A stretch of 24,000 bases of DNA, from contig NC_009012.1 in the NCBI RefSeq assembly GCF_000015865.1, positions 1,891,081-1,915,080 on the forward strand. The letters are read 5' to 3'. Below are positions 1,156-11,376 of this stretch, in pieces. The stretch's first letter is position 1. The number at the start of each line of letters is the position of its first letter. Origin of the DNA: Acetivibrio thermocellus ATCC 27405. Its GTDB lineage: Bacteria; Bacillota; Clostridia; Acetivibrionales; Acetivibrionaceae. The notes under the pieces were generated by a model. The model was not told the DNA's origin. It saw only the letters and a program-made list of their open reading frames with translations, and ran no database searches. Position numbers and translations under genes: made by a program.

Positions 1156-1184
1156 TTGACATTGTATATAGAAAAGTGTAATAT
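1156..1184 (+). promoter_or_regulatory. Sigma-A type promoter: TTGACA (1156-1161), 17-nt spacer, TAATAT (1179-1184)
   Basis: This is read directly from the sequence. The -35 hexamer is perfect, the spacer is exactly 17 nt, and the -10 hexamer matches TATAAT at 4 of 6 positions with TG just upstream. It sits about 50 nt before the GNAT start, in the only gap upstream of the nif-like block. Confidence 0.55.
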
Positions 1185-1232
1185 TTTAAAACATACTAAT
1201 CATATATGTTTAATACAAAAGGGGTGGTTTTT

Positions 1233-1772
1233 ATGGACTTACATATTAGAGAAGCGGATATATCTGACAGTGCATTGGTGCTTTCGTTTATTAAAGAACT
1301 TGCAGAATTTGAGGGGATGGGCAAAGAGGTTACAACGACTGAAGCAGAGCTTCGGGAATCCCTTTTTCAAAAAAGACAGGCAAATGTTTTAATAGCTGAA
1401 ATTGACGGTAATCCCGCAGCCTTTGCACTGTTTTATCCCGTATATTCCACCTTCTCCGGACGGCAAAACCTCTTTTTAGAAGACCTGTTTGTGAAAGAAG
1501 AATATCGAGGTAAGGGTATTGGTAAAGCACTTATGAAACAGCTTGCAAAGAAAGCTTTGCAAATGGGTGCGAAACGTCTTGACTGGTATGTACTTGAGGA
1601 CAATAAAAGCGGCTCAAGGTTTTATAAGCATCTGGGGGCAGTTCCCCTTTTAGACCGGCGTACATATCGAATGAGTGAAAAAAGTTTGGAATCTTTAGCG
1701 AACGGAGTGATGACAAATGTCAAAAATAAATTTATCCCTTCCGGAAGTACAGATAAGGGAAATTCGTATTAA
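1233..1772 (+). CDS. GNAT N-acetyltransferase, spermidine/spermine (SSAT)/thialysine acetyltransferase-like
   Basis: The motifs 'IREADISD..LSFIKELAEFEGM', 'LFLEDLFVKEEYRGKGIGKALM' and 'SRFYKHLGA' follow the SSAT-family pattern (IKELAxYE, YLEDFFV..YRGxGIG, FYKxxGA). The start is placed at ATG 1233 after 'AAGGGGTGG'. The 3' end overlaps the next gene by 56 nt. Confidence 0.85.
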   Translation: MDLHIREADISDSALVLSFIKELAEFEGMGKEVTTTEAELRESLFQKRQANVLIAEIDGNPAAFALFYPVYSTFSGRQNLFLEDLFVKEEYRGKGIGKALMKQLAKKALQMGAKRLDWYVLEDNKSGSRFYKHLGAVPLLDRRTYRMSEKSLESLANGVMTNVKNKFIPSGSTDKGNSY

Positions 1773-3192
1773 TTCAATAACGGGTTATCAGGGAGATGCT
1801 AAGGAACTGGTAGAAGCCCGCGAATTCGGTCTGAAGGATAAAGAACGTTCCTTTAGCCAATGCCTGGGCTGTGCTACCTCAAAAGCGGCCTGTATGACTG
1901 TGTTAATTCAGGACGCTGCAGTCATCAGCCATGGACCGGTGGGCTGTGCTTCCTGTCTGCATGAATTTGCCTTTACCTATCGGGTGAATTATCCTTTGCG
2001 CGGTATTGAACGTCCCACACCACGCCGTATCTTTTCCACCAATCTAAAGGAAAAGGATACAGTTTACGGAGGAAATATAAAGCTTGCCAATACCATTCGA
2101 GAGGTATATGAGAGAACGCATGCCAACGCTATTTTTGTATTGACCACATGCGCTGCCGGAATTATCGGCGATGATGTGGAAAGCGTTTGCAACGAAGCCG
2201 AGGAAGAGTTGGGAATACCGGTGGTAGCCATCTTTTGCGAAGGTTTTCGTTCCAAAGTATGGACCACAGGTTTTGACGCTGCTTACCACGGCATTGCACG
2301 CAAGCTGATTCAAAAACCCCGGAGGCGGCGGGATGACATGATCAATGTAATCAATTTCTGGGGCAGCGATGTGTTTTACGAATGGTTTGCTCCCTTTGGA
2401 GCAAAACCCAATTACATAATCCCTTTTTCTACAGTGAACGGATTAAAATATGCCAGCGAGGCCGCTGCCACCGTCCAGGCTTGCTCCACGCTGGGAAGCT
2501 ACCTGGGAGCAGTGCTGGAACAGGATTTTGGTGTTCCCGAAATTCCTGCCGCCCCACCCTACGGTATTGCACAAACGGATAGATGGTTCAGGGCGTTGGG
2601 AAAGATCCTCGGCAAAGAAGAAATTGCTGAAAAAATCATTGCGGAAAAAAAGAAAGAGTATCTGCCCAAAATTGAAGCTCTACGGGAAAAATTGGCCGGA
2701 AAAACGGCTTATGTAACAGCAGGTGCTGCCCATGGCCATGCGTTGCTGGATGTGCTGGGAGAGCTTGGCATTAAAGCAGTCGGTGCAGCGATTTTCCATC
2801 ACGACCCCATCTATGACAGCGGACGTGAGGAAAACGACCAACTGGCTCAGCGCGTAGCCGATTATGGAAATGTTTTTAACTACAATGTTTGCAACAAGCA
2901 GGAGTTTGAGCTGGTCAATGCCTTAAACCGCCTCCGTCCCGATGTATTGCTGGCCCGGCATGGCGGCATGACTCTCTGGGGAGCAAAACTGGGCATTCCG
3001 TCACTTTTAATTGGCGATGAACATTACTCCATGGGTTATGAAGGTCTGGTCAATTACGGTGAGCGTATTTTAGAAGTTATTGAAAACGATGAATTTGTAA
3101 AAAACCTCGAAAAGCATGCCATCAATCCATACACCAAATGGTGGCTTGAGCAGCCGCCGTATTATTTCCTGAAAGGAGGTACCGGTAAATGA
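1717..3192 (+). CDS. Nitrogenase-like component 1 alpha subunit (NifD/NifE family; MarD/NflD-like)
   Basis: 491 aa. 'LGC(52)ATSK', 'SHGPVGC(77)' and 'LTTC(145)AAGIIGDD' match the three alpha P-cluster cysteine motifs. 'CEGFR' is identical to NifD. 'VQAC(256)STLGSY..FGVP' aligns by eye residue-for-residue with NifD 'VHC(275)YRSMNY..YGIP'. There is a GGAG RBS, and a 4-nt ATGA overlap with the next gene. Confidence 0.9.
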   Translation: MSKINLSLPEVQIREIRINSITGYQGDAKELVEAREFGLKDKERSFSQCLGCATSKAACMTVLIQDAAVISHGPVGCASCLHEFAFTYRVNYPLRGIERPTPRRIFSTNLKEKDTVYGGNIKLANTIREVYERTHANAIFVLTTCAAGIIGDDVESVCNEAEEELGIPVVAIFCEGFRSKVWTTGFDAAYHGIARKLIQKPRRRRDDMINVINFWGSDVFYEWFAPFGAKPNYIIPFSTVNGLKYASEAAATVQACSTLGSYLGAVLEQDFGVPEIPAAPPYGIAQTDRWFRALGKILGKEEIAEKIIAEKKKEYLPKIEALREKLAGKTAYVTAGAAHGHALLDVLGELGIKAVGAAIFHHDPIYDSGREENDQLAQRVADYGNVFNYNVCNKQEFELVNALNRLRPDVLLARHGGMTLWGAKLGIPSLLIGDEHYSMGYEGLVNYGERILEVIENDEFVKNLEKHAINPYTKWWLEQPPYYFLKGGTGK

Positions 3193-10391: not shown

Positions 10392-10411
10392 ATTACGGAG
10401 GTTAGAGAGAT

Positions 10412-11266
10412 ATGAGTAAAGAAATAAGACAAATCGCTATTTATGGAAAGGGCGGTATTGGAAAATCCACCACCACGCAAAACCTTACCGCAGGACTTGC
10501 GGAAAGCGGTAAAAAAATCATGGTGGTGGGATGTGATCCCAAGGCCGATTCCACCAGACTTTTATTGGGAACCTTTGCACAGCGAACTGTCCTGGATACG
10601 CTGCGTGAGACCGGGGAAGATGTGAAACTTGAAAATATTGTGCGCATCGGATTCGGCGGAATAAAATGTGTGGAGTCCGGAGGGCCGGAACCCGGTGTTG
10701 GATGTGCCGGAAGGGGAATTATTACTTCCATAGGTTTGCTGGAACAGCTGGGTGCCTATGATGATGATCTGGACTATGTATTTTATGACGTACTTGGAGA
10801 TGTCGTTTGTGGCGGATTTGCCATGCCGATTCGTGAAGGAAAAGCCAAAGAAATTTATATTGTGGCAAGTGGTGAGATGATGGCATTGTATGCTGCAAAC
10901 AATATTGCAAAGGGAATTGCAAAGTTTGCACAAAAGGGTGGTGTGAGACTGGGAGGTATTATATGCAACAGCCGTAATGTCGACCGGGAAATCGACCTTC
11001 TCCGTGCTTTTTGTGCAGAACTGGGAACTCAACTGATTTATTTTGTTCCCAGGGACAATGTGGTACAGCGTGCTGAAATCAACAGAAAAACTGTCATCGA
11101 GTATGCGCCGGATTCGCAGCAGGCCGACGAATACAGGCGGTTGGCAAAAGCGATAGATGAGAATACTTATTTTACAATACCCAAACCCCTGTCCCAGGAA
11201 CGTTTGGAGGAAATTTTGCTGGAGTATGGGTTAATGGAATCCCTGAAGGATGATTATCGAATTTGA
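10412..11266 (+). CDS. nifH: Nitrogenase iron protein NifH homolog (reductase component; MarH/NflH-like by context)
   Basis: The sequence is close to canonical NifH along its whole length: '[14 protein letters not shown]', '[11 protein letters not shown]', '[13 protein letters not shown]' (cluster Cys plus the Arg100 equivalent), '[13 protein letters not shown]' (second cluster Cys) and '[12 protein letters not shown]'. Confidence 0.95.
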
Positions 11267-11331
11267 TTGGAGCGGTCGGCAGTTTCTGTTGACCGCTTTA
11301 CTTAGCGAAATTTCACGAACTGAAATGAACA

Positions 11332-11376
11332 AAAAGCGATGGGGGCTCGATGCCCTCGGAGCTTTTGTTTATTTTT
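11332..11376 (+). terminator. Rho-independent terminator closing the nif-like/sulfur block
   Basis: It is a two-part stem, AAAAGC..GCTTTT enclosing GGGGGC-TCGAT-GCCCTC, followed by TTTTGTTTATTTTT. A weaker 7-bp hairpin (AGCGGTC..GACCGCT, 11271-11297) precedes it. Confidence 0.7.

Follow-up and report, generated by a model that had tools for sequence, protein, structure and literature searches.

A nitrogenase-like operon of Acetivibrio thermocellus probably serves anaerobic organosulfur salvage rather than nitrogen fixation

We analysed a stretch of 24,000 nucleotides of Acetivibrio thermocellus ATCC 27405 (NC_009012.1, positions 1,891,081 to 1,915,080; hereafter the window), focusing on an operon of ten same-strand genes at positions 1206-11266 of its forward strand. 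The listing of open reading frames (ORFs), together with Pfam and NCBIfam scans, gives the order GNAT, NifD-like (D), NifK-like (K), NifX-domain (X), NifB, MetY, SsuA-family lipoprotein, permease, ATPase and NifH (H), which confirms the co-directional operon and the domains named in an initial annotation of this DNA. These genes correspond to Cthe_1564-1573 / Clo1313_2330-2339, and D shows 100% identity to a strain AD2 protein annotated as 'nitrogenase molybdenum-iron protein alpha chain'. In the omics literature on this cellulose-degrading bacterium, there called Clostridium (C.) thermocellum, the operon is annotated as "nitrogen fixation". Our data favor another role, namely that the operon encodes an ATP-dependent group IV-A nitrogenase-like C-S reductase for anaerobic organosulfur salvage and not for N2 fixation, a reading to which we assign a probability of roughly 60%. 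The analysis itself shows which genes are present, the cluster ligands, the placement of the clade, the conserved linkage, the co-expression and the production of the proteins in the presence of ammonium. The central idea, a nitrogenase-like reductase working within sulfur salvage, had been put forward in the initial annotation and held on all the tests that were run.

Comparison with solved structures shows that both catalytic subunits are closest to those of the methylthio-alkane reductase MarBHDK (Mar) of Rhodospirillum rubrum (group IV-C; 9FMG, 9D9U). D matches MarD with 437 bits and 42.1% identity, against 135 bits for the best nitrogenase alpha chain, and K matches MarK with 384 bits and 43.2% identity, against 56 bits for the next match. 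The scores with the equivalog models are three- to five-fold below the respective cut-offs (139 versus 653.6 for nifD, 82 versus 427.3 for nifK and 171 versus 505 for nifE). The D residues were mapped onto the positions placed around the Mar clusters by the cryo-electron microscopy (cryo-EM) paper. All six P-cluster cysteines of Mar are kept (C52, C77 and C145 in D; C14, C38 and C98 in K), as are the ligands of the L-cluster ([Fe8S9C]), C256 and H415, which together with R414 are equivalent to Cys270, His429 and Arg428 of MarD. Of the 12 ligand and active-site residues of MarD, D retains ten, including the Arg428-His429 pair next to the cluster, proposed as a Mar hallmark by the cryo-EM authors, and the equivalents of Trp195, Phe199 and His375. 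Clade-wide changes relative to MarD, Gln74 to Met and His194 to Val/Ile, are located near the presumed substrate site. On the other hand, Val70, Gln191 and His195 of NifD, residues needed for N2 reduction, are replaced in the window D by Cys59-Met60, Trp182 and Phe186, as in Mar, and the His442 loop of Mo-nitrogenase is also missing. Judged by scores far below the cut-offs and by the lack of Val70, Gln191 and His195, D and K are not a nitrogenase.

In a library clustered at 50% identity, the window D belongs to one tight cluster, and the next full-length clusters are at about 40-43%. A bootstrapped distance tree supports the window clade at 100%, with two paralogues of Clostridium algifaecis as its sister, and the next group out holds R. 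rubrum MarD, with 96% support for the union. D and K adjoin the Mar clade and are placed outside Nif and NifEN, as had been anticipated, but they also fall outside the MarD/MarK clade itself. With 42-43% identity and a separate clade at 100% bootstrap, they are classed by sequence as distinct from Mar orthologues. Hence, Mar, which the initial annotation took as a model, remains valid for the sister-side position of D/K but neither for orthology nor for the Fe protein, which is NifH-type and not MarH. Cysteines 49, 52, 59, 77, 80, 145 and 256 of D are common to all clade members, C49, C59 and C80 being clade-specific extras. The full set of five N-terminal cysteines occurs in none of 93 other representatives of the 50% clusters, and MarD is without two of them. 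A 2026 review lists cysteines 50/53/60/78/81/146/257 for NfaD of Endomicrobium proavitum and 13/37/97 for NfaK; the D/K pattern of the window equals this published set with an offset of one residue, with a D spacing of 68 and 111 (67 and 112 in MarD). A preprint independently placed the Mar-like genes of 'H. thermocellum'-type genomes in group IV-A. We filed D and K under this group, the 'Nfa' clade, by comparison with the published Nfa residue numbers and not by alignment with an Nfa sequence.

The Fe protein has another affinity than D and K. The window H can be aligned without gaps to Clostridium pasteurianum NifH (1cp2) with 76.6% identity, versus 53.2% to R. rubrum MarH; it passes TIGR01287 (462.9 bits, cut-off 394.35) and carries the cluster ligands C98 and C133 and the Walker A motif. 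By its sequence, it is NifH-type, neither MarH- nor NfaH-like, and published NfaH, in contrast, groups with MarH. Among related loci, 45 have a NifH-type Fe protein (75-81% identity to C. pasteurianum NifH) and five have a MarH orthologue (78-82% to MarH). The nifH equivalog model was rejected as a separator of the two types, since both pass it; identity to the reference structures separates them. The loci with MarH mostly show the order H-D-K-X-B and mostly occupy deeper branches, and the NifH type is found in the crown group, which suggests that the Fe-protein partner was replaced during evolution. The occurrence of two Fe-protein types inside one D/K clade is an observation in its own right (H genes of loci L037, L055, L056, L057 and L017).

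Papers on C. thermocellum list only the D, K and H genes as candidates for N2 fixation, and the window NifH is the only Fe protein reported for this genome. Since no other candidate N2-fixation genes are listed, NifH is presumably the partner of the IV-A D/K. According to the 2026 review, the catalytic components of Mar, Isr, DPOR and COR have in no case been observed to work with a nitrogenase Fe protein. As no such functional pairing is known to the review, the native association of nitrogen-fixation-like (NFL) D/K with a NifH-type protein deserves attention. It also touches on the clostridial 'pseudo-nifH', that is, nifH in genomes without nifDK, for which neither function nor partner was proposed (PMC8597730). 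The window gene is similar to these as a nifH indistinguishable from true nifH in a bacterium of the Clostridia that is not diazotrophic, but it differs from their description in that an NFL D/K operon ends with it, as is also the case in 45 related loci.

The remaining genes of the operon complete this picture. NifB scores 279 bits with TIGR01290 in its radical-SAM part and 283 bits over the full length with the archaeal NifB structures 7jma and 7bi7, and is presumed from this similarity to make the [Fe8S9C] precursor cluster. MetY reaches 494.2 bits with TIGR01326, the model of O-acetylhomoserine/O-acetylserine sulfhydrylases (cut-off 495.1), and represents, as Cthe_1569, an extra copy beside the housekeeping Cthe_1842. 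Pfam and NCBIfam revealed no nifE/N, nifV, PII or Mo-transport gene anywhere in the window, in agreement with the initial annotation. The system resembles Mar in its NifB-type maturase and in its link to O-acetylhomoserine sulfhydrylase and a wider sulfur island, whereas NifX is a separate gene, MetY and an ATP-binding cassette (ABC) importer are inside the operon, and the order is D-K-X-B...H instead of B-H-D-K. The substrate-binding protein (SBP) of this importer has a lipobox, LFSG-C, which confirms that it is a lipoprotein. With scores of 104.3 for SsuA_fam (cut-off 163.5) and 29 for TauA (cut-off 304), its NMT1/NitT-TauT membership holds at the family level only. In the permease, the BPD_transp_1 domain is preceded by about 130 aa of N-terminal extension, and this full length is kept in relatives. 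The best NCBIfam matches of the ATPase (SaoA, nitrate and taurine ATPases) are all below cut-offs. SaoA, SaoP and SaoX, the best NCBIfam names for the transporter, were rejected, since scores far below cut-offs indicate similarity at the family level only.

To compare neighbourhoods, one genome per species was scanned, which gave 78 loci from Clostridia, Treponema, Negativicutes, Coriobacteriales and others. The ten window proteins were run by tblastn against related loci and counts were made on the 44 with full flanks. K is present in 43 of these, NifB in 40 and NifX-like in 39, so that the latter two are kept in about 90%; any Fe protein is found in 40/44, the NifH type in 36 and the MarH type in 4. 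A MetY-type gene with at least 50% identity occurs in 25/44 loci and the binding protein in 21/44. Therefore, the recurrent linkage expected by the initial annotation is real for MetY and the importer but not for GNAT, present in 5/44 loci. The D-K-X-B(+H) core recurs in the 78 loci and the genes co-vary in transcriptomes, and hence the arrangement is not due to chance. MetY and the importer move as one cassette, situated between B and H in Acetivibrio, Herbinix, Faecalispora, Kineothrix and many metagenome-assembled genomes (MAGs), and elsewhere in the locus in other relatives. No PII, nifEN, nifV or Mo genes are linked in the related loci examined. Three further members, with Pfam-annotated neighbourhoods, have MetQ-like, CysK-like and Cys/Met pyridoxal-phosphate enzyme genes and no nitrogen genes. 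Upstream of the operon in Acetivibrio are MetQIN, a cystathionine-lyase-family gene and a CysK/CBS-like gene, which resemble the 'thiol cluster' around R. rubrum marBHDK. In two loci, Pectinatus L069 (1747-14138) and L061 (2095-17185), Mar-clade D/K lie beside IV-A D/K. In L061, both D/K types share the locus with only one copy each of X, B and a NifH-type H, after which come MetY and the importer, and L069 has three tandem D/K pairs 5' of MetY.

Published expression data show that the operon is active and ammonium does not silence it. The expression of six of its genes is correlated over ten conditions, with r of 0.85 or more for each pair (PMC4236516). In Populus hydrolysate, these operon genes are up 2.3-8.9-fold, and MetY 2.5-8-fold, along with Cthe_1559/1560, Cys/Met genes and those for sulfate transport, in a medium that included NH4Cl, urea and cysteine (PMC4236516). 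In another study, the transcripts of Clo1313_2327-2339 share one profile, which ends at the terminator, and Clo1313_2341 has a different one; its authors class Clo1313_2325-2331 as cysteine metabolism (PMC5209896). Proteomics of the same study detects eight of the ten operon products, including H, with D peptides covering C49, C52 and C80. In a hydG mutant with perturbed sulfur metabolism, D, K, X, GNAT, H and SBP are up 3-20-fold (PMC5209896). We fixed the column order of these data with a sulfate-binding-protein control, and the values are approximate mean spectral counts. Between the wild type and the hydG mutant with acetate, D rises from 13-16 to 107-162, X from 0 to 19, GNAT from 2 to 19 (about 10-fold), H from 18 to 62 and SBP from 21 to 57 (PMC5209896). 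The link of the operon to sulfur status is suggestive but not clear-cut. As for nitrogen, the initial annotation had named N2 fixation with these genes as the result that would speak against it, and this did not arise: diazotrophic growth of C. thermocellum was tested and not detected, and the old acetylene reduction was not ammonium-repressed (PMC4676874). This activity was reported in 1986. Mar converts acetylene to ethylene and ethane yet leaves N2 unreduced, and such acetylene reduction without N2 fixation would account for the old data.

In the reductase that we propose, NifB would assemble an [Fe8S9C]-type cluster, which the NifX-like protein could bring to D/K, where Cys256 and His415 would hold it. 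The P-cluster would bridge D and K through the cysteines identified above, and the NifH-type Fe protein would supply electrons, hydrolysing ATP. As to which reaction D/K catalyse, on what substrate and with what product, and whether the importer feeds the enzyme, we infer the following. D/K would reductively cut a C-S bond of an organosulfur compound and release a small thiol, most likely methanethiol, or sulfide; MetY would then join the thiol or sulfide to O-acetylhomoserine, giving methionine or homocysteine, and the upstream cystathionine-lyase and CysK-like genes could route sulfur to cysteine. The lipoprotein-dependent SsuA/TauA-family ABC importer most likely brings the substrate. GNAT would be accessory, acetylating an amino-bearing substrate or detoxifying S-alkyl amino-acid by-products of MetY. 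Its best solved relatives are 2fe7 and the thialysine acetyltransferase 12jc, at about 103 bits. Since GNAT is rare, N-acetylation, which the initial annotation had set as an optional step of the pathway, is not a general one. In the loci that have it, GNAT usually stands right after a second MetY paralogue (e.g. Syntrophobotulus), a position from which it may act on the MetY product rather than on the substrate of the enzyme. In Herbinix (L007, 7050-9970), an M20 (ArgE/DapE/PepT-like) deacylase gene and a cystathionine-lyase-family gene are located directly 5' of D, where Acetivibrio has GNAT. Taken together, the GNAT and M20 contexts hint that, in some members, N-acetylated sulfur amino acids occur as intermediates.

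Several points weigh against a C-S reductase of sulfur salvage. The only studied members of this clade, the Nfa systems of Endomicrobium proavitum and Heliophilum fasciatum, were reported to support N2-dependent growth (2026 review); the group IV-A assignment that connects them with the window goes through published residue numbers. About half of the clade has no importer and MetY nearby. The ligand of the SBP is not readable from homology, its best PDB match being 3qsl (69 bits, ligand unknown) and SsuA structures scoring 26-30 bits, and the initial annotation was right to hold that the substrate cannot be identified in this way. The operon is well expressed with cysteine and sulfate in the medium, so that control by simple sulfur starvation does not follow from these data, and its direction is opposite to that of the sulfate-assimilation regulon in two comparisons and the same in one (PMC5209896).

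A wider version of the C-S reductase hypothesis can be formulated, and we consider it tentative, with chances clearly short of even. According to it, the IV-A 'Nfa' enzymes would act mainly as C-S reductases on organosulfur compounds, reducing N2 in Endomicrobium at most as a side activity; an ancestral MarH-type partner would have been replaced by NifH in most Clostridia and Treponema, and the abundant 'pseudo-nifH' of Clostridia would be the working Fe protein of a sulfur-salvage enzyme and a natural example of a nitrogenase-type Fe protein that drives an NFL catalytic component. Plant-biomass degraders would import a non-volatile plant S-methyl compound (S-methylcysteine or a related thioether), and a Cys/Met leader would tune MetY and the importer.

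The most serious alternative, though an unlikely one in our opinion, is that the enzyme performs the same chemistry as Mar on diffusible or endogenous volatile thioethers, such as dimethyl sulfide, ethyl methyl sulfide or 2-methylthioethanol from methylthioadenosine (MTA), the importer being a co-regulated gene for another cargo, e.g. a sulfonate. The conservation of all Mar cluster ligands and of most active-site residues is in its favor, MetY suits methanethiol capture, and about half of the clade has D-K-X-B-H without the importer. Since the latter is so, the imported compound can be proposed as the enzyme substrate only tentatively. However, D/K form a separate clade with 100% support, and the substrate-proximal Gln74 and His194 are changed clade-wide, to Met and Val/Ile, respectively. 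Furthermore, Mar-clade and IV-A D/K co-occur in one locus in Pectinatus L069 and L061, which argues for different substrates, and MetY and the importer were inserted as a single cassette between B and H inside the operon.

An improbable alternative is reductive desulfonation of the Isr type, in which an imported sulfonate (isethionate, taurine or an alkanesulfonate) would be converted to sulfite or sulfide, fixed by MetY as homocysteine. The initial annotation knew Mar as the only characterised precedent, whereas the isethionate reductase IsrBHDK of Rhodobacter capsulatus (group IV-F) was already tied to an ssuCAB importer and to a non-volatile, imported substrate (PMC11423573). The window system resembles Isr as a nitrogenase-like system of anaerobic sulfur acquisition linked to an SsuABC-type importer, its own transporter belonging to the SsuA/TauA family; in addition, the GNAT family acts on aminoethyl compounds and sulfide is usable by MetY. 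Nevertheless, IsrDK has no L-cluster ligands (the Cys/His of IsrD) and IsrB has the radical-SAM domain only, without NifB motifs, whereas the window has both ligands and a full NifB and belongs to a different clade. Moreover, the SBP, with 30 bits to SsuA, is below the SsuA_fam cut-off, and sulfite would need a separate sulfite reductase.

We regard as very improbable that the operon encodes a genuine low-activity nitrogenase, as proposed for the NfaBHDK of E. proavitum and H. fasciatum. Its cysteine fingerprint and spacing equal those of NfaD/NfaK, NifB is present and nifEN is not, as in Nfa, and acetylene reduction was reported in C. thermocellum; a NifH-type Fe protein passing the nifH cut-off, a full minimal NifB, NifX and the P-cluster ligands add to the likeness to Mo-nitrogenase NifHDK. 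On the other hand, the N2-reduction residues are absent, PII, nifEN and nifV are unlinked in all loci examined, and acetylene is also reduced by Mar. Nfa was reported with N2-dependent growth and ammonium repression, whereas the window genes are set in a sulfur context and their proteins are made in the presence of ammonium and urea; tests revealed no diazotrophic growth, and ammonium did not repress acetylene reduction. The 2026 review itself asks whether N2 is the primary substrate of Nfa. Equally hard to sustain is the view that D/K reduce an imported compound in some other way, such as by C-Se cleavage of methyl-selenides or by acting on an organometallic substrate, or that they are a scaffold for cofactor maturation instead of an enzyme. 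The Sao names of the transporter and the co-occurrence of corrinoid methyltransferase clusters for methyl-S/Se metabolism with IV-A genes could point there, but the Sao scores are all far below cut-offs, C. thermocellum has no selenium traits (PMC10418091), the buried-cluster ligand set of D/K is like that of the catalytic Mar enzyme and the linked MetY indicates sulfur.

Provided that the C-S reductase reading is correct, the "nitrogen fixation" gene set of C. thermocellum would be re-annotated as sulfur salvage and the puzzle of 1986, acetylene reduction unrepressed by ammonium, would be explained. The 2026 review sees the lack of tractable hosts as a key barrier for the field; since genetic tools work in C. 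thermocellum, its group IV-A system makes the nitrogenase nature of IV-A directly testable. The native NFL/NifH-type pairing, here and in the 45 related loci, bears on the problem of Fe-protein specificity. It also offers a function and a partner for the 'pseudo-nifH' of Clostridia, a gene that leads to overcounting of diazotrophs in nifH-based surveys of gut, digester and sediment metagenomes. Finally, methane, ethylene or ethane could be by-products of an anaerobic thermophilic C-S reductase, an aspect of biotechnological and environmental interest.

Table 1. Genes and candidate signals of the operon region, in window coordinates
Feature	Position	Strand	Evidence
FtsX-type permease (C-terminal part) and ABC ATPase (Clo1313_2328-2329)	69..1128	+	Pfam FtsX, ABC_tran
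Sigma-70-like promoter TTGACA-17-TAATAT	1156..1184	+	scan, 10/12 matches
GNAT N-acetyltransferase, SSAT/thialysine-acetyltransferase type (Cthe_1564 / Clo1313_2330)	1206..1772	+	Pfam Acetyltransf_1
D subunit (Cthe_1565 / Clo1313_2331)	1717..3192	+	Oxidored_nitro PF00148
K subunit (Cthe_1566 / Clo1313_2332)	3189..4532	+	Oxidored_nitro PF00148
Stand-alone NifX/NafY-type cofactor-binding protein	4525..4881	+	Nitro_FeMo-Co PF02579, E = 9e-23
Minimal NifB, radical SAM only	4894..5769	+	TIGR01290, archaeal NifB structures
Direct repeat TWWACATGATTGAAAA, two copies	5837..5852, 5871..5886	+	B-MetY spacer
Leader mini-ORF MCSDCDMTEMPRCILSNLFIGGDLTWQTN-stop	5967..6056	+	translation
MetY, O-acetylhomoserine/O-acetylserine sulfhydrylase (Cthe_1569 / Clo1313_2335)	6041..7357 (ORF 6002-7357)	+	Cys_Met_Meta_PP, TIGR01326
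Lipoprotein substrate-binding protein (SBP), NMT1/SsuA/TauA family	7382..8443 (ORF 7370-8443)	+	PF09084
ABC permease, NitT/TauT family	8524..9591	+	PF00528 BPD_transp_1, residues 176-345
ABC ATPase of the same importer	9588..10391	+	PF00005
NifH-type Fe protein (Cthe_1573 / Clo1313_2339)	10412..11266	+	TIGR01287
Terminator-like hairpin and T-run	11340..11366 (hairpin 11340-11358)	+	scan

The sigma-70-like site and the terminator-like hairpin with its T-run were both found where a single promoter and a strong terminator had been proposed. The genes between them are closely spaced as described in many places, with overlaps of 4-8 nt (D/K, K/X and permease/ATPase) and gaps of 12-20 nt (X-B, MetY-SBP and ATPase-H), but not throughout, since GNAT and D overlap by 56 nt and gaps of 232-271 nt and 80 nt separate B from MetY and SBP from the permease. 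The ATG at 6041, behind AGGAGGAG, gives a MetY of 438 aa, the annotated length of Clo1313_2335, and is most likely the true start. The SBP start at ATG 7382 gives 353 aa, which also matches the annotated length.

Two spacers carry candidate regulatory elements. The region of the promoter-like site is conserved in A. straminisolvens, and so is a palindrome, AAACATA...TATATGTTT, at 1190-1215 between this site and the GNAT start, which could be an operator. The B-MetY spacer contains a weak promoter-like site (5781-5810) and the repeat TWWACATGATTGAAAA, whose copies are 34 nt apart; good conservation in other Acetivibrio is confined to the first copy, and the repeat is a possible regulator-binding site. 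Further downstream, a leader ORF of 29 codons (MCSDCDMTEMPRC...) has its own AGGAGG site and contains three Cys and four Met within its first 13 codons. It spans the ribosome-binding site (6026-6033) and the start codon of MetY and ends after the MetY start. This ORF is conserved in three Acetivibrio loci and in L067, the conserved copies including those of L001 and L065, and unrelated Cys/Met-rich mini-ORFs are located 5' of MetY in L051 (an Acetobacterium MAG) and L017. The leader and about 60 nt 5' of it are nearly invariant, and the remaining spacer is about 70% conserved. The leader ORF is a candidate Cys/Met-sensing leader peptide, and its presence directly 5' of MetY counts in favor of the sulfur-salvage reading. 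Rfam gave no riboswitch match in the window at the gathering score and none in the two regulatory spacers in E-value scans, with no S-box or T-box, and the RNA fold of the leader region is not significant (z = +1.8). Rfam was also run on 19 related loci. A T-box found in Herbinix L007 is unrelated, having a UGG specifier and controlling trpBA. A TwoAYGGAY RNA (RF01731, 97 bits) lies directly 5' of D in Lachnospiraceae bacterium XPB1003 (L036, 9586-9751) and was not found in six other related loci.

Transcripts of the upstream FtsX/ABC pair parallel those of the operon, and an ABC ATPase occupies the same position in many related loci; this pair is probably part of the same sulfur regulon, outside the enzyme system. 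On the 3' side of the terminator follows a separate, unrelated nucleoside-catabolism cluster (12929-22217) with DeoD, a Bmp-type ABC system (binding protein, ATPase and two permeases), a YjjI-like glycyl-radical enzyme (14952-16496) and its activase (16499-17341), cytidine deaminase (Cdd) and DeoC. Its phosphorylase was rejected as an MTA phosphorylase, being of DeoD type, and hence a methionine-salvage link is absent downstream. The position of the YjjI-like enzyme in this cluster hints that the uncharacterised YjjI family has a role connected with nucleosides. Between the two clusters lies an ORF of 263 aa on the opposite strand (11618-12409), with no Pfam or NCBIfam match, which has its own terminator-like hairpin (11597-11577) and, at 12648-12620, the best promoter-like site of the region (11/12 matches). 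Its product, the hypothetical protein Clo1313_2340, was seen by proteomics (PMC5209896 data).

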